Positions 9,824 through 31,641 of a DNA stretch of 64,000 nt are shown here, piece after piece. The notes beneath the pieces are model-generated. The model had not been told where the DNA came from and ran no database searches. It worked only from the letters and a program-made list of their open reading frames with translations. The number at the start of each line of letters is the position of its first letter. Positions within the stretch are counted from its first letter, which is position 1. The stretch comes from an uncultured bacterium. Lineage in GTDB: Bacteria > Babelota > Babeliae > Babelales > Vermiphilaceae. A program made the translations under genes and the position numbers. The stretch is from the NCBI GenBank assembly GCA_963738145.1, contig CAVTVH010000001.1:569011-633010 (forward strand), written 5' to 3'.

Positions 9824-9833
9824 GTCGTATCCC

Positions 9834-12547
9834 ATGAACTTTGATCCTAAAAAAACAGTCTACATTATCGATGGCTCATCATTTTTATATCGTGCTTATT
9901 ATAGTTTACGTCCCCTGCATTCAAGCAAAGGAATTCCCGTACAGGCAGTTTACGGTTTTTGCCGCATGATTAAGCGTTTAATTGATACGTTCCATCCGGC
10001 CTATATGGTGCTTGTCTGGGATAGTAAAGGCAAAACAACACGTCATGAACTATTGCCCTCATATAAAGCAACACGTCAAGCACCACCAAGCGATCTCTTT
10101 GAACAAAAAAAATATATTTTGCAGTTTGCCGATCTCATTGGGCTTAAGCAGCTGGCTCAACAAGGTATTGAAGCAGATGATATTATCTATTCTCTAGCAA
10201 AAGAGCGGGCAGATGAGGGAGATACCGTTGTCATGCTTACTGCTGATAAAGATATGGGGCAGGCATTGAGCTCCTTAGTGTACATGTATGATACATTTAA
10301 AGAAAAACTTATAGATGTTCCCGCCTTTGAAGCCGAAAAAGGCTTTCCAGTTAATAAACTTCCTTTTTATTATGCGCTCGTGGGCGATGCTTCTGACAAT
10401 ATTCCTGGCGTGAAAGGCATAGGAAAAACTGGGGCGCTCAAACTAGTTCAACAATTTGATTCCTTGATAGATCTCTATGAACATCTTGATCAAGTTGATA
10501 CAAAACGCATACGCGTTGCACTTGAAGCAGATAGAGAAAATGCTTTTCTTAGCCAAGATCTGTTTGTATTGCACTATTACCCAACGGGTTTGAGTAGAGA
10601 CGATTGCTCTTTTGATGAAAACAGTTGGGATCAAGCGCGTCCACTTTTTAAAGAACTTGATTTTAATTCGCTATTACAAGAATCAGGGGTAAAAAAAAAC
10701 GAGCAAAAGGTAGTTGATCCTCTGACGGTGCTTGCGAACTATGATTTTAGGGCCATTACAACTGAGCAAGAGTTAGATGAACTCTGTAAGAAGCTGAGAG
10801 AAACAGGATCGTTTGCACTTGATACAGAAACATTGGGGTTACAACCGCTTTCGGATGCTATGGTTGGCCTATCAATCTGCTATAAAGAAGGCATTGCCTA
10901 TTATATTCCTTTTGGTCATACGACGGGCGATCAACTTTCGCGAGATCAGATAGTGCGCGCCTTAAAGCCTATTCTAGAAGATCCAGCAATTGGCAAATAT
11001 TTACACAACACCAAATTTGATCAATTAGTTTTATTGTCGATAGGAATCCTTCTACAAGGTGTTGTTGATGATACCTGTATAGCAGCGTCATTATTGATGC
11101 CACAAGGGCAACGTAGTGGCCTTAAAAGCCTCTCAGAACATTTTTTTAATGAACCGATGTTGGCCTATGCTGATCTTATGAAACAGTACAAAATAAAAAA
11201 TTTTGCGCAGCTGCCGCTTGATGTTGCAACGCGCTATGCAGCAAGTGATGCTCACCAAACATTTAAATTGCAGCGCGTGTTAGCGCAAGAATTTGCCAAA
11301 GAGCCAACATTATATGCTGTCTATAAAACTATTGAGCTTCCCCTGGCACAGGTTTTGGTCCATATGGAGGCACATGGTATTTATTTAGAGAGCGTCGATT
11401 TACAGCAATTGAATGTAGAATTAACTAAGCGATTAATAGCCTTGGAGAATGAAATTATTTTGCTGGCCGATTATCAGCAAGGTGCCATTAACTTAAATTC
11501 GCCCAAACAAGTGCAGGAGTTATTGTTTGTAAAGTTACAACTGCCGCCCAAAAAAAAGAGCGCTAAAGGTGGCTATTCTACCGATCAGGAAGTATTGGAA
11601 CAGCTATCTGCATTGCATGTGGTGCCACGCCTCATTATCCAGTACCGCGAATTGGCAAAACTCAAGAGCACCTATGTTGAGGCACTACCTACCTACATTA
11701 ATCCCATAACTAAAAGAGTTCACACCACCTATAATCAAGTTTCGGTAGCGACAGGGCGGCTTGCAAGCTCTGATCCCAATCTACAAAACATTCCGGTTTC
11801 AGGAGAATTTGGTCTAGAGATTCGTGCTGCCTTTAAGGCAGAAACAGGCCACACCTTTATTGCTGCCGATTATTCTCAAATAGAGCTACGTGTGTTGGCG
11901 CATCTTTCTGGTGATGAGCAATTAACGCAGGCCTTCTTGCAAGGGCATGATATTCATGCGCAAACAGCATCACGATTATTTGATGTTTCGCTTGAACAAG
12001 TAACACATGAGCAACGGCAAATTGGCAAGCGTATCAACTTTAGTATTTTGTATGGCCTTACGCCGTATGGACTTTCAAAAGATTTAGGCATTTCATTTAA
12101 AGACGCTAAAACCTACATTGACAAGTATTTTGCGCAATATCCAAAAGTATCACGTTGGATGGAATCTGTTGTGGAGCATGCAAAGAAGAACGGCTTTGTA
12201 ACAACGTTTTTTGGACGTCGTCGTACAGTGCCCGCCATTTACGAACAAAATAAAGTTCTGTATGATGAAGCGGCTCGCATTGCAATTAATACCGTAGCGC
12301 AAGGGACAGCGGCTGAAATCATGAAGAAGGGTATGATACAACTTGATGAACAGTTCACACAGCAACACGTTGATGCGCATCTTGTTTTACAAATTCATGA
12401 CGAGTTGTTGGTGAGTGTGCGTGATGAACATGTTGCGCGCGCAGTTGAACTATTATTACGCATACCCTTGAATCAGTTGTAACATGGTCGGTGCCACTTG
12501 AAGTTACGGTACGTTCCGGTGCGACGTGGAAAGAAGTATCTAAATAA
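9834..12547 (+). CDS. polA: DNA polymerase I (C-terminal ~22 codons displaced into another frame)
   Basis: 5'-nuclease N-terminus, 3'-5' exo domain (FALDTETLGL) and Pol A motifs DYSQIELRVLAH, RQIGKRINFSILYG, QIHDELL. The ORF stops at 12482, but the conserved C-terminus ESVVTWSVPLEVTVRSGATWKEVSK* continues in the -1 frame to 12547. Confidence 0.9.
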
Positions 12548-12577
12548 ATTCATACATATACAAACATAGGGGCAGGC

Positions 12578-13138
12578 ATGAAACATGTGATGATCAAACT
12601 TATTATGGGCGCTTTGATCGTATCTACAAATGCACAAGTCTGTGCGAAGTTCGGTGATTCTATATCAGCAAAATTAAGTAATTATATATCAACAAAAAAT
12701 AAAGATTATGTGGCAGCTGCGGCACTTGGCGCGGCACAGGGAGGAATGGCGTCTATGCTCCTGAACCCCAAGTTATTTATTCCAAAGAAAGCGCGTTCAA
12801 CTGAGTGGGGATTCGGTGCAATAGAATCTGAAGAACCAATAGCAAGATCATCAGAAAGTTCATCTGCTTTGTTGGCCAGTGGAGCCTCTAGACATCCTAG
12901 ACCACATTTTGGTGGAAGTAGCCGCATCGGTCTTGGTATGGGGACTCTCATGATATCCGATAAGATCATGCTTGAGGATCTGATCACATTCGGGCCGGAA
13001 ACACTTAACAGTGAAAAAGCAGTTGCGATAGTTGAACATGCTCAAAGATTAAGAACGATACAAAGGACGGTCGCCTTGACTGTCTTCTTGGGAAGAGTTT
13101 TTGCTATGGCCAATCGGGCGCAGCCAAGATATCGATAG
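12578..13138 (+). CDS. hypothetical secreted protein
   Basis: 186-aa ORF with an N-terminal signal-like sequence. No family recognised. Confidence 0.35.
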   Translation: MKHVMIKLIMGALIVSTNAQVCAKFGDSISAKLSNYISTKNKDYVAAAALGAAQGGMASMLLNPKLFIPKKARSTEWGFGAIESEEPIARSSESSSALLASGASRHPRPHFGGSSRIGLGMGTLMISDKIMLEDLITFGPETLNSEKAVAIVEHAQRLRTIQRTVALTVFLGRVFAMANRAQPRYR

Positions 13139-15400: not shown

Positions 15401-17108
15401 ATGAAAGCCCGAGACGTTCAGGATAAAGAAATAAAAGAGCAACAACTTGATACTCCAGATCAACAGAGTTCATCCGAGGGTGATTCTACGTCGATGCCGA
15501 CAACAACACCTCCTATTGAAGCACCATTGCCAGATCCTAAGCCAACAACAGGCGCTCCTCGAGGGGAACGTAAAGTTGTGGTTAGAGCGACTGAGCCAAA
15601 AGTGGAATCAATGAAAGAAGCCAAACAGCCACAGCAACAACAGTACGCCCAAGAAAAGACAGCCTCCCATGAGCGTGACGAACGGCCAAGAACTGATGCA
15701 CGACCTAAAGAATATGGATCGCAACAACATCGTGATTATAGATCAGGGCAAGGTGGAGGATCTCATCAACGTTCTCATTCTCCCCATAACAATAATGGCA
15801 ATCAATACTATCAACAGTCTCAGCAACAAGAGCCCTATAAGCAACCAACGCTTGAGGAGCTTTCTTTGCTCGATTTGAATACGTATGCTCGTCGTTTTGG
15901 TATCGTTGGTGCAAGTTTGCTTTCAAAGCCCGACCTTATTGCGCGCATTCGTTATGTAGAAGCGCATCCTGATTTAGAAATGGAAGTTGAGGGTGTTCTC
16001 GAAAAATTGCCCGATGGCTTTGGATTTTTGCGGTCAGCAAAATTTGATTATGTATCTGGGCCTGATGACGTGTATGTTTCCCCATCACAAATCAGACGCT
16101 TTAACTTAAAAACGGGTGATACGGTTACTGGTGTTATTCGTAAACCAAAAGAAGGTGAAAAATATTTTGCCTTACTTAAGGTTTCCAAAATAAATTACGA
16201 AGATCCGGCGCTCAGTGCTGATCGGCCAATGTTTGATCGTTTAACTCCGCTTCATCCAAATAAAAAATTTAATTTAGAAGCAGATCCTACCATACTATCT
16301 ACGCGTATTATGGATATCTTTACCCCGATTGGTAAAGGTCAGCGTGGTCTTATTGTAGCGCCACCAAAAGTGGGTAAAACGGTATTACTCAAAGAAATAG
16401 GTAAAGCCATAATTGCTAACCATCCGGAAGTCTACTTAATAGTGTTGTGTGTTGATGAGCGACCTGAAGAAGTTGCGGACATGAAGCGTACCGTTAAAGG
16501 GGCATCGGCAGAAGTGATAAGTTCTACTTTTGATGAATCTGCTGAACGTCACGTGCAAGTTGCAGAAATTGTGTTAGAAAAAGCAAAACGTATGGTAGAA
16601 GCGGGCAAAGATGTTGTTATCTTACTTGATTCTATAACGCGTTTGGCCCGAGCTTACAATACAACGGCACCGGCCTCAGGCAAGGTGTTAACGGGTGGTA
16701 TTGATGCTAACGCATTGCAACGGCCAAAGCGATTCTTTGGTGCGGCACGTAACACTGAAGAAGGTGGTTCATTAACTATTATCGCTACGTGCTTTAATTG
16801 ATACTGGTTCACGTATGGATGAGGTTATTTACGAAGAATTTAAGGGTACGGGTAATATGGAAATGCATATGACACGTAAGCTTTCTAATCGTCGTGTATA
16901 TCCTGCCTTTGATCTTGTACAATCAGGAACTCGTCGCGATGAGCTCTTGCTCAATGAAGAAGAACTGAATAAGGTGTGGATATTGCAAAAGTTCTTATCA
17001 ACGATGAATACGACTGAGGGTATGGAATTCCTCATCGAACGCATGAAAAAGAGTAAGACTAATAAAGAGTTCGTCGATTCTATTAACAAGAAAACGGGTG
17101 CGTTGTAA
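15401..17108 (+). pseudogene. rho: transcription termination factor Rho, interrupted by a 1-nt frameshift near 16790, with a ~150-aa low-complexity N-terminal extension
   Basis: ORF 15401..16801 contains the Rho N-terminal and RNA-binding domain, Walker [16 protein letters not shown], and ends [15 protein letters not shown] 16815..17108 continues [35 protein letters not shown]. Dropping one base at ACG-T-GCT restores [15 protein letters not shown]. Confidence 0.9.
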
Positions 17109-17120
17109 AACAGTTGATTT

Positions 17121-18146
17121 CTAGAATATATCCAAAGTCAGATCAGAGAATAGCCCCTGTTGTGCCTTATAGCTTCCTACAAAGGCAATCATGCCAGCAT
17201 TGTCGGTGCAGTAGCGTGGTGATGGTGTGAAGAATTTTTTACCGTGCTCCTCGCATAATGCGCGAAGACGATTTTTGATATACGCATTACAAGCAACACC
17301 GCCGACAAAAGTGATTGCTTGTACATGGGGATAAAGCTCAAGAGCTTGTTCAATTTTTTGTTCAAAAATATCGGCTATACAGACTAAAAGTGAGCTAGCA
17401 ACCTGTTGCTTAAGCAGCTCATCATTCGCACGTAAAAAAGTTTTGGTGGCCATGTCGTAAGCATTTCTTTTTACCAAGTCGTAGAGCACTGCAGTTTTGA
17501 GGCCAGAAAAACTAAAATCGAGCGTTTTGTGTTTTGCTCGTGGGTAGGCAAAAAAATCTTCAAAGTTAACCTGCGCTGCCATTTTTTCTATAATGGGCCC
17601 ACCTGGATAGGGCAATCCCATGAGTTTGGCTATTTTATCAAATGCCTCGCCAGCAGCATCATCAACCGTGTGGCCTATCGTATCATAATCACCAAAACCA
17701 CGAATATAATACAAGGATGTGTGCCCTCCAGAAGCGGTAATACATAGATGCGGAAAAGGAACGTTATTTTCAATCGATGCAGAAAAAGCATGGCCTTCAA
17801 GATGGTTAATGCCAATAATTTTCTTATCCAGCGCCCATGCCATCCCTTTAGCGAAACAAAGACCAACGAGCAAAGAGCCGGGCAATCCTGGCGTGGATGT
17901 GATTGCAATAACATCAATATCATTGAGGGTGATCTGTGCGTTATCAAGCGCAAGCTGAATAATAGTATTAATTTTTTCAAGATGCGAACGTGACGCTATT
18001 TCTGGAACCACACCGCCATGTGCTTTATGCATGTCTATCTGGGAAAAAAGTACGTTTGAAAGCATACCGCGCTCGTGCTGATACACGGCAGCAGCTGTTT
18101 CATCGCACGATGTTTCTATACCAAGAACCTTAGGGTTAGTTTTCAT
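17121..18146 (-). CDS. tsaD: tRNA N6-adenosine threonylcarbamoyltransferase
   Basis: VLGIETSCDETAAAV, HLEGH, SGGHT and GVACN motifs of the Kae1/TsaD family. Confidence 0.9.
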   Translation of the reverse strand: MKTNPKVLGIETSCDETAAAVYQHERGMLSNVLFSQIDMHKAHGGVVPEIASRSHLEKINTIIQLALDNAQITLNDIDVIAITSTPGLPGSLLVGLCFAKGMAWALDKKIIGINHLEGHAFSASIENNVPFPHLCITASGGHTSLYYIRGFGDYDTIGHTVDDAAGEAFDKIAKLMGLPYPGGPIIEKMAAQVNFEDFFAYPRAKHKTLDFSFSGLKTAVLYDLVKRNAYDMATKTFLRANDELLKQQVASSLLVCIADIFEQKIEQALELYPHVQAITFVGGVACNAYIKNRLRALCEEHGKKFFTPSPRYCTDNAGMIAFVGSYKAQQGLFSDLTLDIF

Positions 18147-18895
18147 GTGGAGATAGCCAAAACTGTTTTTATAGAATGGTCAAAACGAACTTCTTGTTTT
18201 ACTTGGCTGTGGAGGGCGTTGTAATCAAGAGAAGAAAGAAGCATTTGTGCCGATGAGTCGTGGAGTCTTTTTTCTGATCCAGTTATAGCTAAGATATTTT
18301 TGTCGATAATTATAGTAGGAAGTTCAACACAATTACCGCCACGTATTTCTTCTATAAAAGCGGGATTGTAGCAGATGATAATGCATGTATCGGGTATTTT
18401 ATTATCATTAAATATCAACTTTTCCTCTCTCACTTGCCAGAAGAATTGCGGTGAAGAACTCTTTTTATGGTCATCGATTGATTCTTCGGGGATGACTTCT
18501 TTAAGCTGTAGGGTGTAAAACTTGTATTTTTTACGCGGATCTATTTTAAGGTGTTTGACTGTGGCGCCTTCTGTTTCGAATAAAATACCCTCGATAATGA
18601 GGATATTAAAATAGGTTTGTGCGCGATCATCGGTGATGCTGAATAAAATACGTTTCGTGTTGTTATCAGCGATACACTTAATTTTGTAGCCACTGCAGTA
18701 AATTGAAATGTCGGGTATTGTCGTAAGCGAGCGGGGAAATTGTATGGTCCCCATAAAAAGCATAGGATTGCGCGGTTTCAGATCATTTCCTAGGGCATTG
18801 TTGTAGAATGCGCATACCAGATATACCCAGATGAAATAATGGTTGATCATGAGACATCCCCAAGGTAGAAGGCTATACATTGTGTTAGTAACCAT
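18143..18895 (-). CDS. hypothetical protein (signal or anchor at N-terminus), overlaps tsaD start by 4 nt
   Basis: 250-aa ORF. The start may instead be MINHYF at 18847. No family recognised. Confidence 0.4.
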   Translation of the reverse strand: MVTNTMYSLLPWGCLMINHYFIWVYLVCAFYNNALGNDLKPRNPMLFMGTIQFPRSLTTIPDISIYCSGYKIKCIADNNTKRILFSITDDRAQTYFNILIIEGILFETEGATVKHLKIDPRKKYKFYTLQLKEVIPEESIDDHKKSSSPQFFWQVREEKLIFNDNKIPDTCIIICYNPAFIEEIRGGNCVELPTIIIDKNILAITGSEKRLHDSSAQMLLSSLDYNALHSQVKQEVRFDHSIKTVLAIST

Positions 18896-18984
18896 ATATT
18901 CTGAAATTCAAGAATATCTTTGTGTATGATACCCCAAATATAACTACGTTTCAAACGTTACTCCGTAGGTAAGGTCTTTAGAGT

Positions 18985-19473
18985 ATGATGCGACGAATTT
19001 CTCAGTGGCTTGCTTCATTAGTGGTTCATGAACGATCGAGTGCAAAATTGGCTTTTTCCTTTTGTATGGGTATTTATATAGCCTTTTCTCCCTTTGTTGG
19101 TTTTCATACGCTTATGACCTTTGTCATTGTCTGGTTATTGGGCCTCAATTTAGCGGTTACTTTTGCGGCGTCTTGCCTATTGCATAATCCTTGGACAACC
19201 ATTCCTATTTACGGTTTTGATTATATTTTTGGTGAATGGCTCCTCAAAACAGTTATGGGTCTTGATAGTTTAGCCATGAACCCATCATGGATGTTGTCGG
19301 TCAACGATACTCTATCTACCTATCTTGGCACGCCGCATATTGCCCTTTGGTCGTTTATGATAGGGGGCAATATATTAGGGATTGTATTTAGCTTTGGCCT
19401 TTATCCTATCATGAAGAAGCTCTTTATTAAGCTTGTTGAAAAAGTGCATGGCATTGCTAGCGTAGAGGGGTAG
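18985..19473 (+). CDS. small integral membrane protein (DUF2062-like)
   Basis: 162 aa. The pattern AFSFCMGIYIAFSPFVGFHT..NPWT..P plus three or four TM helices resembles the DUF2062 family as I recall it. Confidence 0.5.
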   Translation: MMRRISQWLASLVVHERSSAKLAFSFCMGIYIAFSPFVGFHTLMTFVIVWLLGLNLAVTFAASCLLHNPWTTIPIYGFDYIFGEWLLKTVMGLDSLAMNPSWMLSVNDTLSTYLGTPHIALWSFMIGGNILGIVFSFGLYPIMKKLFIKLVEKVHGIASVEG

Positions 19474-19476
19474 TTT

Positions 19477-19941
19477 ATGGGAATCAAAGTTATTGCCCAG
19501 AACAAAAAGGCTTTTTTTGAATATGAAATTTTAGACAAACTCGAGGCGGGCCTTGTGCTCACCGGCGATGAAGTTAAATCAATTCGGGCCGGGCAAGTTT
19601 CCCTCATAGGAGCATTTGCCGTTGTCACCAATGGCGAACTTTTTATGATCAACTGTACCATTGCTCCCTATAAACAGGCCTATACCAAGCGGGACGATCT
19701 TGCTACCAGAAGTCGCAAATTGCTCCTGGCAAAACGAGAAATTTCTAGAATTGTTGGTGATATCTCCCGTAAAGGGGTAACGATAGTGCCATTGAGTATC
19801 TATTTTAATGATCGGAATTTCATTAAAGTCGAGCTTGGTATATGTAAGTCGAAAAAAGCAGCAGGTAAAAAACAAGCAATTAAGGAGCGGGACATCGAAC
19901 GGCAAACACGTCGTGAAGTTAAGGATGTGTATAAGTATTAG
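19477..19941 (+). CDS. smpB: SsrA-binding protein SmpB
   Basis: AQNKKAFFEYEILDKLEAGLVLTGDEVKSIRAG..RSRKLLL.KREI and a basic C-terminal tail. Full-length SmpB pattern. Confidence 0.9.
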   Translation: MGIKVIAQNKKAFFEYEILDKLEAGLVLTGDEVKSIRAGQVSLIGAFAVVTNGELFMINCTIAPYKQAYTKRDDLATRSRKLLLAKREISRIVGDISRKGVTIVPLSIYFNDRNFIKVELGICKSKKAAGKKQAIKERDIERQTRREVKDVYKY

Positions 19942-19996
19942 ACCTGATCTTCGCTACTTACGTAGCTCCGTGGGAATTCCCTTTATTATTTTCGGG

Positions 19997-20027
19997 CCCC
20001 AATCGCAGCCTTTTGGCGAGATTGGGT
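19997..20027. repeat. hairpin repeat, family A (CCCAATCGCAG...GCGAGATTGGG)
   Basis: Imperfect palindrome between the smpB stop and the tmRNA copy 1 3' end. Related copies at 20532-20557 and 46590-46618. Confidence 0.7.
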
Positions 20028-20034
20028 GAAAGTT

Positions 20035-20501
20035 TGGAGGCGATGGGAGTCGAACCCATGTCCGTATCACGTCAAGAATCGAGCACTACACGCTTAGTTT
20101 TTGATGATACTGTGCATGACCTCAAAAACAGAGTAAATCATGCAAGCTTATTGGGTGATACACACAATCCCACGCAATAAATAATCCTTGGATAGTGGTC
20201 CTATCTTTTATTATACGAATGAGCTCAGCTGATAGACACGCCTTGCCCAAAAGAGTGTTTGCGTCTTACGCAACTCTAAAAAGTCTTTGTCTGCGTGCCG
20301 CTACTGCAGGAGCAAATGCTGCTGCTATGCTAGCCATTACAAAACCAAGTACTTCCATAAAGCCAAAGCGTTCGCCTTGGACACCTGCATCACTTTGAGT
20401 GTTTGCATTTATCTTTTTTAACCAATTGTTTAACGAGCACTTGATCAACGCTCGGCATGCTCTCAACGCCATCAATAACACGTCGAAACCAGTACGCCCC
20501 C
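20035..20501 (-). ncRNA. ssrA: tmRNA (SsrA), copy 1, ~467 nt, long tag reading frame
   Basis: On the minus strand: 5' GGGGGCGTACTGGTTTCGACGTG ... GGACATGGGTTCGACTCCCATCGCCTCCA 3'. The 7-bp acceptor stem has a G3:U70 pair and there is a T-arm. CCA is not encoded. Homologous along its length to copy 2. Confidence 0.85.
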
Positions 20502-20531
20502 GAATTTTTCAAAGAACCACCTAATTTTTAT

Positions 20532-20557
20532 CCCAATCGCAGTCTTTGCGAGATTGG
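20532..20557. repeat. hairpin repeat, family A
   Basis: CCCAATCGCAGTCTTTGCGAGATTGG, about 30 nt upstream of the tmRNA copy 1 5' end. Confidence 0.7.
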
Positions 20558-20710
20558 TATCAAAGGATATGTTTATGATAGCATAGCTACCTCAAATGTT
20601 AAGAATGATTATTTTTCCCACTCTGCTATATTAAAATCAGGTAAAAATTCAATATTTTTAAGTTGTTAGGAAAAGATTTTCAACCCCCCTTCCCACACAA
20701 AGGACCCTCC

Positions 20711-21250
20711 ATGACTTCAAAAAACCTCACTATTTTCCTCACCCTCCTCGCACTAACCCCAGCCACACTAGTGTCATTCGCCGTTATTAATCAAACCGAT
20801 ACGGCAAAAGAGTTGGAATTGACCGAGGCATATCGCCATACATCTAAAATGCCAGATGGAGGGACTTCGTCAAAGGTTGTGCCCCTTAACGATACAAATA
20901 AACCCCATGCGCTCACGGTAGCAGCTAAATCCATAGTTTATTTTAAACTGACACAAGCATGCCCGGTGATGCTGTGTGATGTTATAACAACAACAGTGAA
21001 AGATAATACAACAACAGAATCGCGGATGCAGACTTGTTATGAGCCTTATCCTTTGACTCGTACCGAAAAAGCTTCAAAGTTTACCGATAAGTGGGGTTTA
21101 GTTATATGCAAACCGGATGCTTACAATAACGATTATGCTAACTCTTTTGCAAGACGTACGGCTCTCATGCAAGGATATGGCATTAAAATAGCACATCCCC
21201 AACTCCTGAAAAAAACAACCGTAGATGCATTGCCAAAAGAACTTGCCTAG
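20711..21250 (+). CDS. hypothetical secreted protein
   Basis: Signal peptide MTSKNLTIFLTLLALTPATLVSFA. No family recognised. Confidence 0.4.
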   Translation: MTSKNLTIFLTLLALTPATLVSFAVINQTDTAKELELTEAYRHTSKMPDGGTSSKVVPLNDTNKPHALTVAAKSIVYFKLTQACPVMLCDVITTTVKDNTTTESRMQTCYEPYPLTRTEKASKFTDKWGLVICKPDAYNNDYANSFARRTALMQGYGIKIAHPQLLKKTTVDALPKELA

Positions 21251-21372
21251 CCCTATAAACTAATATGATCCAACAAAGCTGGGAAGATTCAAAACCTCCC
21301 CGGCTTCATTTTTTTAGTAATACGTTATACTAGTGCTCAATTAAGAAAATCGCATTACCCTAGGATTTTCAA

Positions 21373-23403
21373 ATGAAGCACTCCATTTATTTATCGCTTA
21401 TTCTTGTAACCATTCCTTTCACCATTGCCGCACACAAAGATTCCAACACATCGTTATTTCATAAAATAAAACATCATTGTGTTTCTATGCTACCGGAAGT
21501 GGAAAAAGATTGGCCAAATGAGGCTTTCTATGACTACGTAGAGCGGTGTATGAAGTATCAGCGTGATTTGCAGCCGATAGAAAAAACACGAGCAGTATTT
21601 AAAATATTTTCTCCTCATCACAAAAAGGCATGCGCTCAGGTGCTTGCTGACACAAAAACATGGCAAGATCTGTGTTTATTCGGGACAGAACAGGGGTTTG
21701 AGGGATCATTTTTACATAAAATTAATCGCACGATCAGTGAATTAGGCCGCATTCATATTGTGTGTATGATGGCACAACCATTAACTGATTGTAAAAAAAT
21801 AAAGAAACGCCAACGTATTATTAAAGCATTCGTTGAAGATGAGCAGTTATATGCATCGGTAAGCGCATTGCTGAAGGAATTTTCAACGCTCGAGAACTTC
21901 CTCTTTTCATTTTGGTTGCAAGACATGCTACGTCAGGCATCAAAAAAACATTATTTCAGTGTCCCCTATTTTAAGAAATTCAACGAGAACCTTAATAAAA
22001 GCGAAATAGCCCTTGATGTAAAAACCTATTTTGACCATGGTAAACGATGTATGTGGTTTATCAGTACAGCCGCGGCAGCAATCGTATTACCGATCTATGG
22101 GTATATGCAATACACAAGCGCGGACATTGGCCCAACATTTCAAGAGACGGCCGAGCGGCTAACTGGTTCTGGAGGCCCTGCAATAGTATGGCTTATGTCG
22201 TTGATTAAGAATAATAAACTTAAAGGGCTGGCATCTGCAGGAGCAGGTTGGGTGTGTGGTGTTGTGGCAAAAGAGGAGTTTGATTGGGCCTACGACAATA
22301 TTTTTTTAGAAACATGTTTGCAAGAAAAACTTATAGCAGTTTCACGAGCTCAGAAAATTATCAAGGAGCTAGCCGTTTGCGTCCATGAACATGAAGAACT
22401 TATGCAAGGGCTAGATTTTGCAGAACATCTTAAAGATTACGCCAAGGGGCACGGGACATCTGATGGAATGCGTAAGCTTACTAAACTTTTGAAAAGTACA
22501 ACATTTGCATCGCAGCCGTCACCATGTTCACGATTGGGAAGAGTGCTTGTTACGTATGATCTTATGCATGAAGTTAAATCAGAATGGACGGGAGCGCTTG
22601 CAGCATTAGGAGAGTTGGATGCTTATGTGGCTTTAGCTAGCTTGTATAAAGAGTATGAAAACAAAGAAAGACGATTCTGTTTTGTAGGTTTTGTGGAACA
22701 TGATAAACCAACTATAGTGATGCAACAATTTTGGAATCCGTGTGTTAATGCACAAAACGTAGTTGCCAATTCTATTACTGTCGGTGGTAATGAACGCCAA
22801 AATATTATTATTAGTGGGCCAAATGCGGGTGGAAAATCTACATTATTGCGTTCAATTGCACATAATCTTATTCTTGGCCAAACATTCGGTATAGCGGCAG
22901 CACAGGAGATGTCGATTACGCCATTTAGTTTTATCGCTACTTACTTAAATATTGCCGACGATATTCTTTCGGGGACCTCAATGTTTAAAGCTCAGGTTTT
23001 ACGAGCACAATGGCTCCTCGATAAAACAAGCACTTTATCTGAAAAAGATTTTTCGTTCATTGTAGTGGATGAGATTTTTAGTGGTACGGCTCCTCGTGAA
23101 GGGCAAGCTGCTTCGTATGCCTTTGCCAAATATATGGGTAGCATGCCAAATTGCATATCTATGATTGCGACACATTTTCCTCTTTTACTGCAATTGCAGG
23201 AGGAAACAACTTCATTTGCTAACTATAAAGTCTCGGTTTCTGTCGGCCCTGATGGGACTATTATATATCCTTTCACCATTCAAAAGGGTGCATCAGACCA
23301 AAATATAGCATTTGATATATTACGGGCTGAAGGTTTTGATCACGCTATTTTAGAAAGTGCATATGAAGTTTTACGTTCCCATCAACTCAATTTTACAGCG
23401 TAG
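21373..23403 (+). CDS. MutS-related protein: signal peptide and TM segments plus a C-terminal MutS domain V ATPase, with no mismatch-binding domain
   Basis: Walker A GPNAGGKSTLLRS, STF-like SGTSMFKAQ, Walker B FIVVDEIFSGTAPREG and ATHF. The N-terminal 450 aa lack MutS domain I and contain hydrophobic helices (CMWFISTAAAAIVLPIYGYM, LASAGAGWVCGVVA). Confidence 0.75.
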   Translation: MKHSIYLSLILVTIPFTIAAHKDSNTSLFHKIKHHCVSMLPEVEKDWPNEAFYDYVERCMKYQRDLQPIEKTRAVFKIFSPHHKKACAQVLADTKTWQDLCLFGTEQGFEGSFLHKINRTISELGRIHIVCMMAQPLTDCKKIKKRQRIIKAFVEDEQLYASVSALLKEFSTLENFLFSFWLQDMLRQASKKHYFSVPYFKKFNENLNKSEIALDVKTYFDHGKRCMWFISTAAAAIVLPIYGYMQYTSADIGPTFQETAERLTGSGGPAIVWLMSLIKNNKLKGLASAGAGWVCGVVAKEEFDWAYDNIFLETCLQEKLIAVSRAQKIIKELAVCVHEHEELMQGLDFAEHLKDYAKGHGTSDGMRKLTKLLKSTTFASQPSPCSRLGRVLVTYDLMHEVKSEWTGALAALGELDAYVALASLYKEYENKERRFCFVGFVEHDKPTIVMQQFWNPCVNAQNVVANSITVGGNERQNIIISGPNAGGKSTLLRSIAHNLILGQTFGIAAAQEMSITPFSFIATYLNIADDILSGTSMFKAQVLRAQWLLDKTSTLSEKDFSFIVVDEIFSGTAPREGQAASYAFAKYMGSMPNCISMIATHFPLLLQLQEETTSFANYKVSVSVGPDGTIIYPFTIQKGASDQNIAFDILRAEGFDHAILESAYEVLRSHQLNFTA

Positions 23404-24637
23404 AAACAGTAAAGAAGTTTGACCATTTTTTAAGCCGTTGTAACTGTATGTGGGCTTGTTGCATGCGTATATCCTTAAACTGATCGCTTGAGACCCACTG
23501 AGGAATGATTTTGTGGGCATAGTCCATAAAACAGTCAAAACCTATGCAATACTTTTGATTACCTTGGCTATCCGTTATTTTTTCAGGAAATGCGACGCCA
23601 ATGCCAAAAAGCCGAGGAGCTATAAGGCCATTTGCTTCGTTGTAAGAAACTATAGGAGTAGCTCCATTAATAGATGGAAGATCATTGCGTTCATAACCAA
23701 TCGCATAAATTACTTTAGTACACCTGGTGTTGGTAAGGCCGGCAGCAATATCTTGATCGGTTGGTGTGTAGATGCGAGTTAAGTTTGCAGGCGGATTAAT
23801 TTCAAGTACATTTTGCGCCCATTCAGCAGCAACGCCTTTTAATTCAGTTGTTTTGCTTAGTAAAGGGTTACTTTTTTCTGCTACAAATTTGAGGGGAGTA
23901 CGGTAGAAATTGTAAATATGGTCTACTGGTTTTTCTAATTCCGATAAAAATTTTAAGAGTAAAATTGCTGAATGCGAGCTACCTACAACAGCTACCCTAT
24001 CATTTGGTGTTACTAGCGTGGGCAGGATAAACCTATCCAGAGCACTATCAAGAGGAATTGTTTTATCTTTTTCATAGGGCAGCTCTTTTGGATATGATCC
24101 AGTTGCGAGTATAACATGGTGAGCGGAAAGCTCCTGCCCTCCTTTAGTGTTAACATGCCAGGTGTTGTTATCAAAATAGAGGGCGTCCATAGAATCTTGT
24201 ACCGCATGAATACGCGCTTTAAGGTAATTGGTTATCTGTTGTAGGGGCCTGACAATAACCCCTAATTCATAGCCTCGCTCATTTGGGTCTAAGGTTTTGA
24301 GGTAATCTAATTCGGCACAGGAACAGTTTTGAAATGTTGTACATGTGCTTACAAAGTCTATGAACTCTTGTACTCTGCTGTTAGCAAAAACACGTTGATA
24401 AAAGGCGCCCATACGGCCCACATTAAATTCAGGGTCAAGCCAAATAATACTTTCTTGGCGTACGCCAATATCTAAAAGGACACCGATAGTAAGAATCCCT
24501 GCAGGACCAGCCCCAACAATAAGCCAATCGGCGACATGTTGAGGTTGCGCGGGTGTGTTGTTACCCACAAGTTGGGGATTAGGCACCGCAATTAAAGAAA
24601 GTGAAAATATACAATAGGCAAATAAAGTGTATTTCAT
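23393..24637 (-). CDS. FAD/NAD(P)-binding oxidoreductase with signal peptide
   Basis: Two dinucleotide-binding motifs (WLIVGAGPAGI and VAVVGSSHSA). Start at MKYTLFAYCIFSLSLIA, preceded by AAAGGA. Confidence 0.6.
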   Translation of the reverse strand: MKYTLFAYCIFSLSLIAVPNPQLVGNNTPAQPQHVADWLIVGAGPAGILTIGVLLDIGVRQESIIWLDPEFNVGRMGAFYQRVFANSRVQEFIDFVSTCTTFQNCSCAELDYLKTLDPNERGYELGVIVRPLQQITNYLKARIHAVQDSMDALYFDNNTWHVNTKGGQELSAHHVILATGSYPKELPYEKDKTIPLDSALDRFILPTLVTPNDRVAVVGSSHSAILLLKFLSELEKPVDHIYNFYRTPLKFVAEKSNPLLSKTTELKGVAAEWAQNVLEINPPANLTRIYTPTDQDIAAGLTNTRCTKVIYAIGYERNDLPSINGATPIVSYNEANGLIAPRLFGIGVAFPEKITDSQGNQKYCIGFDCFMDYAHKIIPQWVSSDQFKDIRMQQAHIQLQRLKKWSNFFTVSTL

Positions 24638-24879
24638 GGGAATCCTTTGAAAAAAGTCTATTTTGGCTAACACTACTGATCCGCGCAGGCTTTTGTAAAG
24701 GATTTCGAGAGAAATTCTGGCATACCCCTGCGGGCCATACCATTTGAAATTATTGTTATCCTGAGTATTGTTAAATATATATGTTGAAATTGAAGGTTAA
24801 AGTACCATTCTTGAGCAAGAATATTGAGAGAGGGACTCTTTTTTGGGTATCCTTTGAGAGTTGATCATTGAAATATTAG

Positions 24880-25236
24880 GGGGGCGTCAAGGTCTCGACG
24901 TGGTAGAAATGCCATCAAGAGCATGCCGAGCGTTGTTCAAGTGCTCGTTAAACAATTGGACAAATACCTAATTGCAACTGTTAATTCAGCTGCCTTTACG
25001 GCGTAAGCCGTAAAAGACTTGTTAATGAGCCGTGTCTATCAGGTGAATTAACTCGTATAATACAAGATAGAACTTTCGGGTAAGATTTTTTGATTTTGTA
25101 TCCCGTAAAGTATCACTAAACCAACATACCTATCGAAGTCTGTCTTTGAGCTGATAGGTGTGTACATTCTAAGACTGAGCATGGAGCGCTTGATTGTTGA
25201 CCACTGCGGACATGGGTTCGATTCCCATCGCCTCCA
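24880..25236 (+). ncRNA. ssrA: tmRNA (SsrA), copy 2, ~357 nt, 10-codon tag
   Basis: 5' GGGGGCGTCAAGGTCTCGACGTGG ... GGACATGGGTTCGATTCCCATCGCCTCCA 3'. Acceptor stem with G3:U70. Tag frame GCA ACT GTT AAT TCA GCT GCC TTT ACG GCG TAA (24974-25006) encodes ATVNSAAFTA. Confidence 0.85.
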
Positions 25237-25278
25237 ATCTTTTACCCAATTTTGCCAGGGGCAAGAATTGGGACCCAA

Positions 25279-25490
25279 TTCGCCTGCGGGGGAAAGACTT
25301 TGAAGTGTGGCTGGGCGACATTGGCTGCGCCGCATTTGATATAAGATGACTTAGGCGAAGATTGCCCCACGTAGCTAAGAGATACCCCATAGATATTCCC
25401 CACGAAAGCGAAGTGTGGGCTGGCTGCAAATGTAAATTGACTATTTATTGATTCGCCTACGGGGGGAGAAACTTCGAGGGTTTGGCCACC
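25279..25490 (-). repeat. composite of family B repeats immediately 3' of tmRNA copy 2
   Basis: Direct ~40-nt repeats TTCGCCTGCGGGGGAAAGACTTTGAAGTGTGGCTGGGCGAC (25279) and TTCGCCTACGGGGGGAGAAACTTCGAGGGTTTGGCCACC (25452). The central part is the reverse complement of the 15241-15320 repeat. Confidence 0.6.
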
Positions 25491-25558
25491 ACTGCTCCTT
25501 ACCAAGAATTTAAGACTGATAGTTGAAATGTGAAGGTTATCTATTTTGGAGGTTATAT

Positions 25559-26089
25559 ATGGATTCTATAAGAAGACTTTTGATAATTACGGGCCACCTA
25601 TTCATTGCAGGTGTAATGCATGGTGCTGGTGCCGATATCCCGCTTGAGCGGATAGTTGGTGATACTGCCGGATCACTCACACCGCTGTTAGCATCATCCC
25701 CTACAGCTGCTGAAAAAGATCTGTGTTCTATTTGTCATGACGATCTTAAAGACAACCTATCTACGTTGCCTTGTAAGCATAGATTGCACACCGAATGCTA
25801 TGAGGGTTTAATAAATTCAAGGTTAGTAAGTGAAGCAGTTCTATGTCCATTGTGTCGGGCTGATGTGGGGATAAAAGGGCAAAATCAACCAGATGTTGCG
25901 CTACGGGTAGTTCCTGCAGCAGATAATCAAGTATTACAAGAACTTCAACGAGCGCGAGAGCGAGCATCGGCAAGAGGGCTCAGACATTGTATTGGTGGCT
26001 TGTGTTTGCTAGGAGCGGCTATAGCTATTGTTGTTTCCTTAAATTATCATTTTCAGTGGATACAGTTTGGGCCTACTACAGGACATTAA
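25559..26089 (+). CDS. RING-H2 finger protein with N-terminal signal peptide and C-terminal TM helix
   Basis: C-x2-C-x12-C-x-H-x2-H-x2-C-x15-C-x2-C (CSICHDD..LPCKHRLHTEC..CPLC) at 25724-25855. GGAGG RBS lies 7 nt before the ATG. C-terminal anchor IGGLCLLGAAIAIVVSL. Confidence 0.75.
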   Translation: MDSIRRLLIITGHLFIAGVMHGAGADIPLERIVGDTAGSLTPLLASSPTAAEKDLCSICHDDLKDNLSTLPCKHRLHTECYEGLINSRLVSEAVLCPLCRADVGIKGQNQPDVALRVVPAADNQVLQELQRARERASARGLRHCIGGLCLLGAAIAIVVSLNYHFQWIQFGPTTGH

Positions 26090-26104
26090 AGGAGATACAG
26101 TCAA

Positions 26105-26632
26105 ATGAACTATTTAAGGTTTTTTTTAACCCTACATTGTCTGTTGTTAATCACTACTTTTTATGCCAGTTCTCCATTATCAACTATTCAAGTATCATCG
26201 CCGTCATCGGAGCTTCTACTAACTCATGACGCCACTTCTGCAGATGAGTTTGCATCAGAAAGTTCTAAGCGAGCATGCGCCATCTGTTTAGAAGATCTTA
26301 CGAGTCCAAAAAAAGAATTGCCTTGTGCTCATGAATTTCATGCGGTTTGTTACCAAGAATTGAAAAAATCTAAGCCAGAAAGCGAACAGATAAAATGTCC
26401 CTTGTGTCGAGCAGGTACAGGTGAACAAGGAGAAAACAAAGAGGCTGCGCAAGAAATAGGGGTTGGACAACCACAACCGGCCTTCGACGTAATTGAAGCA
26501 GAGAGATTGAGACGTAGGACATTACTAAAATGGGTCTGCGCCGGGATTATTGTTGTTGGTTCTACAGTTGCATTCACCTTGCTAAATGCTCAGTATGGGT
26601 GGATACATTTTGATCCTCATGGTATTCCCTAA
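26105..26632 (+). CDS. RING-H2 finger protein, tandem paralogue
   Basis: Identical spacing of metal ligands (CAICLED..LPCAHEFHAVC..CPLC) at 26276-26407. Has a signal peptide, C-terminal TM WVCAGIIVVGSTVAFTLL and a shared tail motif Y-x-W-I-x-F. Confidence 0.75.
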   Translation: MNYLRFFLTLHCLLLITTFYASSPLSTIQVSSPSSELLLTHDATSADEFASESSKRACAICLEDLTSPKKELPCAHEFHAVCYQELKKSKPESEQIKCPLCRAGTGEQGENKEAAQEIGVGQPQPAFDVIEAERLRRRTLLKWVCAGIIVVGSTVAFTLLNAQYGWIHFDPHGIP

Positions 26633-26768
26633 AAATCTTACCCCCTTGAGGCCAAAGACTCTTATTTGAAACTTTTTGATTTTTCTATATATTCTAAATG
26701 TGCGCATTTTGGATGTGCTCTTTAAGTAAAGCAGACTTCTAACTAGGGTATATAGGGAGACCATTTTT

Positions 26769-27056
26769 ATGATACGTATACAATCTTTATTAAGCATAAG
26801 CCTTTTATTATTCGCTTCTTCTTTTTCCTACGCAGCCGAACAAGATCAGTTAAAAGGGGGTATAGAAATGCCCTCATCACCTCTAGGTGCTTCCTGCACA
26901 TCTATTAATATTAGTACCGTCCCTCTTTTGAATAATGAAACTCCTGTCATTAGTGGTGGATCAACTTGTTTAAAGGCCTGCGTTCTTACTACAATTTCTG
27001 TAGGTCTATTGTCGGCATTGGCAATTGGTGGCATGCATATTGCGCAGTCGATGTAA
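26769..27056 (+). CDS. hypothetical small exported protein with C-terminal TM helix
   Basis: 95-aa ORF with a signal peptide and the hydrophobic C-terminus CVLTTISVGLLSALAIGGM. Confidence 0.35.
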   Translation: MIRIQSLLSISLLLFASSFSYAAEQDQLKGGIEMPSSPLGASCTSINISTVPLLNNETPVISGGSTCLKACVLTTISVGLLSALAIGGMHIAQSM

Positions 27057-27174
27057 CTTATCTATGCGTTGACTAATCCTTAAAACGCACTAGGCTTAAA
27101 CATTGTCTAATCAGTCTTAAGATGCAATTCTAATGTTTAATTCTTTATGTGTTTTAATTAAAGGATTTTTTTGT

Positions 27175-27801
27175 ATGATCACAAAAAGCAAATTGTTTTT
27201 AACGGCTACTCTTGTAGGTTCAGTGGCCGGTCTTCAAGCCTCGTTTAAGCCTTTAACGCCAACTCCATCGGCTACAGCAACCCCTAAAGCTTCAGTATCT
27301 AGTAAAGTTTCGGCATCGAGTGATGATGTAAACATCTATTACATCGATACCGCTATGGCAATGCAAAATTGCGATCGCGGCAAAGAGCTTTCCCTGGAAT
27401 TAGACAAAAAACGCGAGCAGTTAAAGGATGCGGTGGGCAAACAGGCTAAGAAATTGACTGATGCAGACAAAGATTTTAAAACCAAGAACGCAACTATGAG
27501 TCCTGCAGCACGTAGTTCAGCTGCAGCAAGCATAGATAAAATGCAGCGTGAGTTAGAAGTGTTTGCAAAGAATAGCGAAGAAGAGTTCAACTTAGCTGTA
27601 CAGCAAGCAATGCAAGAAATGTCTCCAGTGATTGAAAAAATTATCACTAAAATAGCAAAAGATAAAAATGCTGACGTTGTGCATGATACGGCAACTGGTC
27701 GCACATGGCGTTTTTCTACTAAGCACTCCATGACAGATGATGTAATTGTAGCGATAAATCAAGAGTACGCTGCCAGTAGCAAGGCAAAAGTAACTGCGTA
27801 G
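27175..27801 (+). CDS. skp: periplasmic chaperone Skp (OmpH family)
   Basis: Signal peptide followed by a long coiled-coil, Lys/Glu/Gln-rich region typical of OmpH/Skp, ending IAKDKNADVV.D... Confidence 0.65.
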   Translation: MITKSKLFLTATLVGSVAGLQASFKPLTPTPSATATPKASVSSKVSASSDDVNIYYIDTAMAMQNCDRGKELSLELDKKREQLKDAVGKQAKKLTDADKDFKTKNATMSPAARSSAAASIDKMQRELEVFAKNSEEEFNLAVQQAMQEMSPVIEKIITKIAKDKNADVVHDTATGRTWRFSTKHSMTDDVIVAINQEYAASSKAKVTA

Positions 27802-27830
27802 TAACTTTCTTGGTATAAGAGTGATATAAA

Positions 27831-27857
27831 AGGCGGATCAAAAGATCCGCCTTTTTT
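27831..27857 (+). terminator. rho-independent terminator
   Basis: AGGCGGATC-AAAA-GATCCGCCT followed by TTTTT. It overlaps the pth upstream region. Confidence 0.7.
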
Positions 27858-27867
27858 GGGTATATAT

Positions 27868-28383
27868 ATGACTATAAAAGCAATTATAGGTTTGGGTAAC
27901 CCCGGCCCTAAATATTATAATAATCGCCATAACATTGGTTTTCGCGTGGTAGATGCCTTAGCGGATCGATTTGCTGGTTCTTGGCATCAAAAGGGGAGCA
28001 TGGAATTGGCAGAAATAACTTTACACGGTAACCAGCTACTCCTTATTAAGCCTCAAACATTTATGAATAGTTCCGGCAACGTGATCCCGTTCTTGCAGAA
28101 AAAAGGAGTTAAGCCAGAAGAAATTTTGGTGGTGCACGATGAACTCGAGCTGCCCTTTGGCGTCCTTAAATTAAAAATGGGGGGCAGCGCTAAGGGGCAC
28201 AATGGCCTTAAATCTATCATCGCTCACTGTGGCCCAGAATTTATGCGGCTTCGCTTTGGCATCGGCCGCCCCGAACAGCGGGAAATGGTGCCCGATTATG
28301 TTCTGCAAAACTTCTCTGAAAAATCAGATGAGATTGAGCGGCATATTAGCGAGGCAGTGGCTATGATTGAACGGGAAAAATAA
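27868..28383 (+). CDS. pth: peptidyl-tRNA hydrolase
   Basis: IIGLGNPGPKYYNNRHNIGF, HDELELPFG and GGSAKGHNGLKSI. Confidence 0.9.
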   Translation: MTIKAIIGLGNPGPKYYNNRHNIGFRVVDALADRFAGSWHQKGSMELAEITLHGNQLLLIKPQTFMNSSGNVIPFLQKKGVKPEEILVVHDELELPFGVLKLKMGGSAKGHNGLKSIIAHCGPEFMRLRFGIGRPEQREMVPDYVLQNFSEKSDEIERHISEAVAMIEREK

Positions 28384-28777
28384 ATCGGCTTGTTGAAGAA
28401 CTACTGCTCGAAGATAATGAGCTTGATGAAGATGATGGTGTGGTGTTTGGTGTATCTGTGAATCTTGCAAGAGAACCATGTGATGTTGTCATTGAGCCGT
28501 GTAATGGACTGTTTGTAGGGGTTGTTAGAGGAATTGCTGTAGGAGTTGCTTTAGGGGATCTTTTGGCTATTTCTCTAAGATTGCCATACATGACACGTGC
28601 TGTTTCTTGTCCGGTACGCGTCAGTACTCGGTGAGCAGAGTATACATACATCGGCGTTGGCGTGGCGAGGGGTGTGGTATGTCTGGATGTTTCTGGGGTG
28701 CTTGTTGAGGCTCCATACGCCCAAATATTGATTCCAGTAGATATCAAGAAAATAATAGCTCTATACTGTGTACTCAT
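28361..28777 (-). CDS. hypothetical secreted Ser/Thr/Pro-rich protein
   Basis: 138-aa ORF with a signal peptide and a low-complexity tail TPSSSSSSLSSSSSSSTS. Confidence 0.4.
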   Translation of the reverse strand: MSTQYRAIIFLISTGINIWAYGASTSTPETSRHTTPLATPTPMYVYSAHRVLTRTGQETARVMYGNLREIAKRSPKATPTAIPLTTPTNSPLHGSMTTSHGSLARFTDTPNTTPSSSSSSLSSSSSSSTSRFIFPVQS

Positions 28778-28866
28778 AAACGGCCTACTCTCTTTTTTTA
28801 AAAAACTTTAATTATATCTTGATTACTACCGTAGCATATTGCCAAAAAAAAATGCCAGCATTTGGA

Positions 28867-31481: not shown

Positions 31482-31641
31482 CTTCGGTTAATAGTGTGTC
31501 CGAATAGTATACCGTAGCTGAAGGATGTGTAAAATTAGTGCTTTTTCTTTAATCTCGTAACCCCGGTGCAAGGGGGCTGTTTTGGGGTATACTAAAACAG
31601 ATGTAACCTATCACCTCTGTTTTAGTATAAGGAACGGCACC

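Follow-up and report, generated by a model that had tools for sequence, protein, structure and literature searches.

The tags encoded by transfer-messenger RNA (tmRNA) are usually seen as short degrons of about 10 residues, with the 27-residue tag of Mycoplasma as the textbook exception; the tags in published collections have roughly 8-35 residues and end in a hydrophobic residue followed by alanine. The standard one-piece tmRNA (Rfam family RF00023), which works with SmpB, has a tRNA-like domain with a G3:U pair (G3:U70 being the identity element for alanyl-tRNA synthetase, AlaRS), a long helix 2, four pseudoknots (PK1 to PK4), a GCA resume codon some 15 nt past PK1, a tag stop codon within the helix-5 loop, an adjacent smpB gene, and a tag with a nonpolar-Ala end. 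Here we analyse a 64-kb stretch of contig CAVTVH010000001.1 (the window, whose positions are used throughout), which belongs to a Dependentiae (TM6/Babeliales) chromosome and contains two complete tmRNA genes. Copy 1 (ssrA; 20034-20501, minus strand, 468 nt) shares all of these features with the standard tmRNA and differs from it in a tag frame of 46 codons (model bacteria have 10-14 and the sample of 41 relatives 7-32), in the 24-residue hydrophobic core and RRQR cluster of this tag, and in the lack of an encoded CCA. Copy 2 (24880-25237, plus strand, 358 nt) encodes the conventional tag ATVNSAAFTA (24974-25003, plus strand, with its stop codon at 25004-25006).

Extended ssrA tags have been described in Mycoplasma and Mesoplasma, where, in work by Gur and Sauer in 2008 and by Ge and Karzai in 2009, they are reportedly read by Lon. 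The likeness to copy 1 lies in host-dependent bacteria with reduced genomes and in long tags rich in hydrophobic and aromatic residues. The copy 1 tag has the length of at least about 27 residues and the hydrophobic and aromatic determinants of the Mycoplasma type, but not its C-terminal ...(Y/N)AFA end, AFA being internal in copy 1; tags of relatives end in AFA, VFA, or VYA, and we take the ...AFA end of the clade to match the ...YAFA end of mf-ssrA. Compared with mf-ssrA, the copy 1 tag is longer (46 versus 27 residues) and more hydrophobic (best Kyte-Doolittle window 2.11 versus about 0.0), and, unlike in the Mycoplasma system, the window genome also keeps a short-tag tmRNA. Other genomes likewise carry more than one complete tmRNA gene; the window copies are distinguished from these by being chromosomal, 4.3 kb apart, inverted, and located by smpB, with tags of 10 and 46 residues. 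A polar linker, a hydrophobic helix of about 19-24 residues, and a basic cluster are also seen in tail-anchor and transmembrane segments, from which the tag differs in a marginal Hessa value (+1.9 kcal/mol), in an Ala/Gly-rich core containing Glu and Pro, and in the C-terminal location of its positive charges. In a survey from 2005 the longest tmRNA had 425 nt (PMC1168896), which is shorter than copy 1.

The comparisons reported here indicate that copy 1 is a real and extreme variant of the known system and is probably functional. A 46-codon tag that looks translated would widen the limits on the length of a tmRNA message, and the conventional paralogue alongside makes this a natural system in which to ask whether rescued proteins can have two fates in one cell.

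The tag reading frame of copy 1

The favoured resume codon of copy 1 is the GCA at gene position 96 (20404-20406, minus strand). The original prediction had proposed this codon from its distance to the conserved CAATTGG box, which is 15 nt in copy 1 and 14 nt for the corresponding GCA in copy 2, and had named a covariance-model alignment as the analysis that could refute it. In the Rfam alignment, the consensus UGCaAACgAc falls on UGCAAACAC of copy 1 with maximal posterior probability and the sequence that follows is treated as an insertion, so that the resume codon is placed at 20406 here too. The start of the tag falls at gene position 92-98 in the 41 further Dependentiae tmRNAs compared, which come from genomes and metagenomes. 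A resume-context matrix that covers the codon and the 12 nt before it, derived from 28 distinct relatives and with a training range of 9.5-19.5 bits, gives 17.0 bits at position 96, the best score in the gene, with the next best site at 5.9. Resumption at position 96 is preferred because these three lines of evidence agree with one another and with the coding signal in codons 1-36.

From this codon, translation reproduces exactly the 46-codon frame that had been predicted, ANTQSDAGVQGERFGFMEVLGFVMASIAAAFAPAVAARRQRLFRVA (20269-20406, minus strand), ending in UAA at 20266-20268, as well as the 10-residue tag of copy 2. The UAA lies in frame with the resume codon and within the loop of UUGCG-UAAGA-CGCAA, a hairpin extended by AGAG/CUCU. 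Since the loop of helix 5 is the canonical site of tmRNA stop codons (PMC1168896), a canonical start and a canonical stop share one frame, 46 codons apart. By chance alone, an open frame of 45 codons has P ~0.06, and its composition is better evidence of translation than its length. Coding potential was scored with a codon table trained on 26 long open reading frames (ORFs) of the same window. The tag frame reached +19.0 bits, compared with 10.3 +/- 5.6 for true genes in frame, and its off-frames gave -24.6 and -38.7 bits, compared with -23.8 and -38.7 for the off-frames of real genes; its score was reached by none of 20,000 shuffles and by none of 3,814 equally long non-tag tmRNA windows. Codons 1-36 alone yielded +19.1 bits (0/20,000 shuffles), and codons 33-46 yielded +1.8 bits in frame 0 versus -8.7 and -11.5 off-frame. 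GC contents at the three codon positions are 0.67/0.52/0.24, and neither alternative frame would give a tag-like end (...LLQ* or ...KTF*). Judged by its codon usage and boundaries, the 46-codon frame looks translated.

ARAGORN, which detects both genes, reports a different tag for copy 1, ARRQRLFRVA, starting in the same frame at an internal GCA (gene position 204, 20298-20296), which would leave the preceding 108 nt as an untranslated spacer between PK1 and the resume codon. Such a tag of 10 residues ending in VA would have an ordinary length, and the GUAGCG just before this site places U-A-G at -5 to -3, which resembles U85-A86-G87 of E. coli. The site, however, scores -10.0 bits in the context matrix and lies 108 nt further from PK1 than the tag start in all 41 relatives, and the supposed spacer, which corresponds to codons 1-36, contains the strongest coding signal of the frame and shows no extra fold. 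We consider this placement very improbable. The choice of the internal GCA is presumably due to a built-in limit on tag distance in the program. ARAGORN also missed the tmRNAs of two relatives with 23-residue tags (L079 and L089), both of which were found with Rfam. As the program misplaces tags with long frames, metagenome-derived genomes probably contain more long-tag tmRNAs than their annotations show.

The same frame could alternatively encode an independent hydrophobic small protein of 30-71 residues, translated from an internal ATG (M17) or an upstream GTG, and the original prediction had considered re-purposing of the gene into a small-protein mRNA. A 71-codon ORF indeed begins at GTG 20481, for which the gene caller gave a 68-residue product (P0001), and codon 17 of the tag frame is an in-frame ATG. 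The GTG, however, lies inside the region of helix 2 of the tRNA-like domain and PK1, no Shine-Dalgarno-like sequence was seen by eye before either start, and the coding signal extends from the resume codon onwards, with codons 3-16 upstream of the ATG included. The frame opens in a trans-translation resume context without a start codon and runs to the helix-5 loop, within a gene that retains the complete tmRNA architecture, all of which makes a free-standing small protein extremely improbable.

Other sources of the additional sequence were considered. The fold of the tag region is no better than that of shuffled sequence (z = -0.86), so the region is not a structured insertion; a structured RNA insert, an intron, or a miniature inverted-repeat transposable element in the tag ORF was rejected on this value and on the lack of terminal repeats. 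No internal repeats of at least 7 nt were found in the tag ORF except AGCAGCA. The capture of a fragment of a protein gene was not supported, as no protein or DNA match was obtained; an old capture is possible.

Integrity and history of the two tmRNA genes

Both copies cover the full RF00023 model (positions 1-374), with 125.6 bits for copy 1 and 137.8 bits for copy 2 at a gathering threshold of 47 bits, so copy 1 is not truncated, and its extra ~110 nt relative to copy 2 lie wholly within the tag reading frame. The acceptor stem of copy 1, GGGGGCG/CGCCUCC, forms 7/7 pairs including G3:U, and the T-arm, AUGGG/CCCAU, forms 5/5 pairs around UUCGACU, with an intact T-loop; the 3' half of the tRNA-like domain, comprising the T-arm and the acceptor 3' strand CGCCUCC (20036-20059, minus strand), pairs with 20495-20501. 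The segments of helix 2 form 8/8, 5/5, and 5/5 pairs. PK1 (20419-20454, minus strand) consists of CGAGC/GCUCG (5/5 pairs) and UGAUCAA/UUGGUUA (7/7 pairs). Helix 5 (AGAG-UUGCG / CGCAA-ACA-CUCU; 20252-20277, minus strand) forms 5/5 and 4/4 pairs and is homologous to helix 5 of copy 2, which pairs 8/8. The remaining pseudoknots (20097-20249, minus strand) form 5/5 and 6/6 pairs in PK2, 7/8 and 6/6 in PK3, and 7/7, 3/3, and 8/8 in PK4. The mismatch in PK3 is the single one among the copy 1 stems tested, all others pairing 3/3 to 8/8, and the helices of copy 2 are equally intact.

The two copies are about 69-76% identical, with ~69% identity over the non-tag body. In PK2 s6, PK3 s8, PK4 s10, and H2b, the sequence differs between the copies and full pairing is found in both. 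Examples are the PK2 stem, UGGGC/GCUCA in one copy and GUUAAU/AUUAAC in the other, and the PK4 stem, UGCAUGA/UCAUGCA in one and ACAUACCUAUC/GAUAGGUGUGU in the other. Stems that differ and yet pair in both copies, together with a body identity of only ~69%, imply that both copies have long been maintained as tmRNAs. We read this pattern as a signature of long-term selection on both RNAs and not of decay.

The CCA end is not encoded in either window copy, both genes ending in ...GCCTCCAA (20034-20042 and 25229-25240), whereas CCACCA is encoded in 18/19 aligned relatives. This shared derived loss implies a dependence on the CCA-adding enzyme, and, being common to both copies, it is not a sign of a defect in either.

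These data bear on the proposal, also raised in the original prediction, that copy 1 is a decaying duplicate. According to this proposal, copy 1 would be a pseudogene whose tag region is swollen by junk insertions, and copy 2 would do the work. Copy 2 has the higher Rfam score and the conventional tag, whereas copy 1 has a tag known from this genome alone, with an atypical C-terminus, and no encoded CCA. Neutral decay, on the other hand, would not be expected to leave helices that pair throughout, several of them different in copy 2 and paired there as well at this level of body identity. The G3:U pair, the T-arm, and the T-loop are intact, and the open frame runs as far as the helix-5 loop with the codon usage of the host. 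Copy 2 also lacks CCA, and it is copy 1, not copy 2, that occupies the conserved site next to smpB. Decay is therefore improbable, and the evidence argues for copy 1 as a functional paralogue.

A promoter-like site, TTAACA-16-TATCAT with a TG extension (20575-20602, minus strand), lies ~74 nt upstream of the mature 5' end of copy 1; its identification is a consensus match only, with 10/12 matches. A hairpin of 25-27 nt, CCAATCTCGC-N5-7-CTGCGATTGG, occurs exactly twice in the 64-kb window, where 0 copies are expected by chance. One copy is in the 5' leader of tmRNA copy 1 (20533-20557, minus strand) and the other lies 9 nt past its 3' end (19999-20025, minus strand), so that the two form direct repeats flanking the gene. 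The flanking hairpin might act as a terminator that was duplicated, or as a stem for processing of the precursor.

Copies 1 and 2 form an inverted duplication whose homology extends ~20 nt past both gene ends, with arms at 20417-20522 / 24859-24964 and 20014-20064 / 25207-25257. It encloses 4.3 kb with o195, a candidate secreted protein, a MutS-family gene, and a pyridine-nucleotide oxidoreductase. Recombination between arms of this kind could invert the enclosed segment.

A second short-plus-long pair, which the original prediction had not noticed, was found in the metagenome contig L084, where two tmRNA genes lie 2.6 kb apart (9606-9962 and 12519-12943, both on the minus strand). The long copy, encoding 31 residues (149.9 bits), adjoins smpB, and the short copy, with the tag ATPEVAALA (145.1 bits), is distal and lacks an encoded CCA. 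The order in L084 (smpB, long copy, short copy, pth, and alaS) is that of the window. Among the 44 loci with tmRNA-like matches, two tmRNA genes are present only in the window and L084; other lineages have the proximal copy only, for example L010, or the distal copy only (L080). Within each genome the flanks are common to both copies, whereas the flanks of the window and those of L084 are unrelated; the ~170 nt of 3' flank that the two L084 copies have in common also occur in L003 and L099. A neighbour-joining tree of the tmRNA bodies was poorly resolved, and the pairs may go back either to one old duplication followed by gene conversion or to independent duplications. In L009 (12139-19100; complete chromosome OY969699), the long-tag tmRNA is followed by an insertion of ~7 kb when compared with L084, and the sequence examined ends ~0.9 kb before the expected site of the short-tag copy. 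Our literature search found nothing on dual tmRNAs in Dependentiae.

Origin, properties, and possible fate of the long tag

The 41 relatives sampled encode tags of 7-32 residues ending in AFA, VFA, VYA, ALA, or AAA. The smpB-proximal tmRNA of a Dependentiae subclade often encodes 21-32 residues, and such long tags, which are common in the clade and had escaped the earlier analysis, comprise 21 residues in L010, 23 in L079 and L089, 27 in L003 and L037, 28 in L004, 29 in L082, 31 in L009 and the long copy of L084, and 32 in L092. Length differences between orthologous long tags amount to 3 or 6 nt, which indicates that the frame is kept, and the peptide sequence of these tags changes quickly. 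Residues 1-32 of the copy 1 tag (...RFGF..VLGF......AAAFA) parallel the L092 tag (...NYGF..SLFGF......AVAFA) with z = 2.9 versus shuffles, and no other tag shows significant similarity; AFA occupies residues 30-32 in copy 1, and the actual end is RLFRVA. From these comparisons, the copy 1 tag looks like a clade-typical tag of ~32 residues with small in-frame insertions and a 14-codon 3' extension, PAVAARRQRLFRVA (codons 33-46, 20269-20310, minus strand), past the clade-typical ...AFA end as aligned with L092 and L003. The claim that the tag is several-fold longer than usual holds in this sample, in which the long tag is, on sequence grounds, the extreme of a subclade trend, and a tag of 27 residues has been called 'unusual long' (PMC8403727). 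No published maximum tag length was found in the literature.

Two further derivations were set aside. Homology of the tag to those of L003, L037, and L082, suggested by an alignment by eye of ANTQSDAG... with ANSTRDAI..., was not significant (z <= 1.1), and a tandem duplication of the helix-5 unit as the source of the 14-codon extension, with ~50% identity by manual alignment, was too weak.

The tag of 46 residues, including 11 Ala, 5 Phe, and 5 Val, is laid out as polar residues 1-13 (net charge -1), a 24-residue hydrophobic core (net -1), and a basic end, RRQRLFRVA (residues 38-46, net +4). The core, FGFMEVLGFVMASIAAAFAPAVAA (codons 14-37, 20296-20367, minus strand), is rich in Phe, Ala, Val, and Gly and also holds one Glu and one Pro; a tryptic peptide of the region of residues 1-36 would be FGFMEVLGFVMASIAAAFAPAVAAR, following R13. 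The best 19-residue Kyte-Doolittle window scores 2.11, compared with 0.5-1.2 in the long tags of relatives, and exceeds the classical threshold of 1.6 for transmembrane segments. AlphaFold2 in single-sequence mode gives one helix over residues 4-45 with a pLDDT (predicted local confidence) of 79.6, reaching 93 for residues 21-30, which is weak evidence. The hydrophobic stretch noted in the original prediction is thus borne out as a hydrophobic core, while its character as a membrane helix is only marginal. The position-independent sum of Hessa dGapp values for the best 19-residue window is +1.87 kcal/mol, whereas a value near or below 0 would be expected of an inserting segment, and under the positive-inside rule charges C-terminal to the helix are on the wrong side for a tail anchor. 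Because of this sum and of the positive cluster on the C-terminal side, a true membrane anchor is possible but not favoured, and the analogy with the Lon-read tags of Mycoplasma is the better-supported one.

Mycoplasma lacks ClpXP and has an 'unusual long' tag of 27 residues read by Lon; Lon recognises accessible hydrophobic regions, and FtsH is also able to degrade ssrA-tagged proteins (PMC8403727, PMC8138137, PMC10695633). In Dependentiae, the genome paper on Chromulinavorax lists lon among the cytoplasmic proteases and never mentions Clp (PMC6561590), and our literature search found nothing on the Clp/Lon content of TM6. By analogy, Lon or FtsH may recognise the long tag as an extended hydrophobic degron, and the ...RVA terminus of the tag fits the nonpolar-then-Ala ending.

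We consider it likely that copy 1 is a functional tmRNA paralogue with a 46-residue tag, which may act as a degron of this type. Alanylated copy 1 would enter stalled ribosomes together with SmpB, translation would resume at GCA 20406-20404 and continue for 46 codons to the UAA in the helix-5 loop, and rescued nascent chains would gain the 46-residue tail. This tail would act as a degron for an AAA+ protease of the kind that reads extended hydrophobic sequence, such as Lon or the membrane-bound FtsH. The short-tag paralogue would supply a second, conventional signal, and the two paralogues might differ in the recognition or fate of the tagged proteins or be used under different conditions. If a Dependentiae protease does read this tag as a strong orthogonal degron, the pair might find a use like that of mf-ssrA and mf-Lon.

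Of the explanations offered in the original prediction, a specialised tagging system is the better one, given an intact tmRNA and a frame that looks translated; to the further step, a different fate for tagged proteins, we assign only a small chance. According to that proposal, two specialised trans-translation channels would be kept in this lineage and at least one other, with the short tag leading to ordinary cytosolic degradation and the long tag to membrane delivery for FtsH, aggregation sequestration, or use at a stage of infection. The locus would be of more interest if the two tags direct different fates.

Several observations weigh against a functional long-tag paralogue. The last 10 codons of the frame are neutral (-0.1 bits) and have no coding signal of their own. 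No orthologue of the 46-residue tag was recovered: a word-indexed search of 5.8 billion protein clusters, an exhaustive phmmer search against 1.84 billion representatives, and a blastn comparison of the tag ORF with the window and every fetched locus gave only the sequence itself and one spurious hit (E = 9e-4), and the metagenome contigs matching one exact PK1-region pattern yielded none. The ...FRVA end with its RRQR cluster is unlike the ...AFA, ...VYA, and ...ALA ends of the clade, and this atypical C-terminus may make a poor degron. Protease genes were not found among the 10 largest ORFs of the window. The exact tag is known from one assembly only, as the independent Logan contig L001, which matches the window over 3.2 kb (16839-20016), stops 18 nt short of copy 1, inside the downstream hairpin. 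Finally, the gene for the tmRNA-charging enzyme, alaS (28870-31487, minus strand), which lies ~10 kb from copy 1, occupies three reading frames because of two single-base frame changes, one near 31010 and one near 30745, whereas it is one intact ORF of ~885 aa in L084 and L004. Either the assembly contains indels here or this essential gene is truly disrupted, so indel errors in the assembly are a possibility.

The long frame might accordingly be an assembly or sequencing artefact, arising from an indel or a chimeric join in a metagenome-assembled genome, with a shorter true tag. The single assembly, the two breaks in alaS that relatives lack, and the end of L001 before the gene are in keeping with this. 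Exact-product look-ups for P0001, MutS, o195, and PyrRedox gave no independent contig, a Logan contig being obtained with smpB only. In contrast, ~20 other checked genes of the window are full length, and L001 matches at 99.94% with no gaps. The resume context and the helix-5 stop stand in one frame, so a compensating pair of errors would be needed, and only frame 0 is coding in both codons 1-36 and codons 33-46, the other frames having the endings given above. An artefact is in our view very unlikely, and we retain the functional paralogue as the preferred reading.

Gene neighbourhood of the tmRNA pair

All relatives of the window SmpB are from Dependentiae (TM6, Babeliales) genomes, with 56-77% identity, a group of obligate intracellular parasites of protists (PMC6561590). 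The SmpB partner expected of the tmRNA family is encoded by smpB (19477-19941, plus strand; Pfam SmpB, E = 7.5e-51), which is convergent with copy 1 at a distance of 93 nt. The order o295-Rho-o97-TsaD-o250-DUF2062-SmpB-tmRNA upstream of copy 1 is kept across the clade, and copy 1 holds the conserved smpB-adjacent site in the orientation opposite to most relatives.

A phage or mobile origin was rejected, as copy 1 had no blastn match among 50,697 phage records and the viral contigs scanned with the PK1 pattern gave none either; nor was there any sign that the pair came from a plasmid or genomic island.

Genes of translation rescue are gathered within ~12 kb (19477-31487), comprising smpB, the two tmRNAs, the peptidyl-tRNA hydrolase gene pth (27856-28383), and alaS, with an OmpH/Skp-like gene (27133-27801) among them. 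Directly after copy 2, two adjacent genes encode RING-finger (C3HC4) proteins (25523-26089 and 26105-26632, plus strand), and an ankyrin-repeat protein is encoded at 52796-54043 (minus strand). These proteins with eukaryote-like domains are probably host-directed effectors, as is typical for Dependentiae. The Rho protein of the conserved gene order (15401-16801, plus strand) has a long N-terminal extension that aligns poorly with relatives, and its RNA-binding domain begins at residue 196 of 466.

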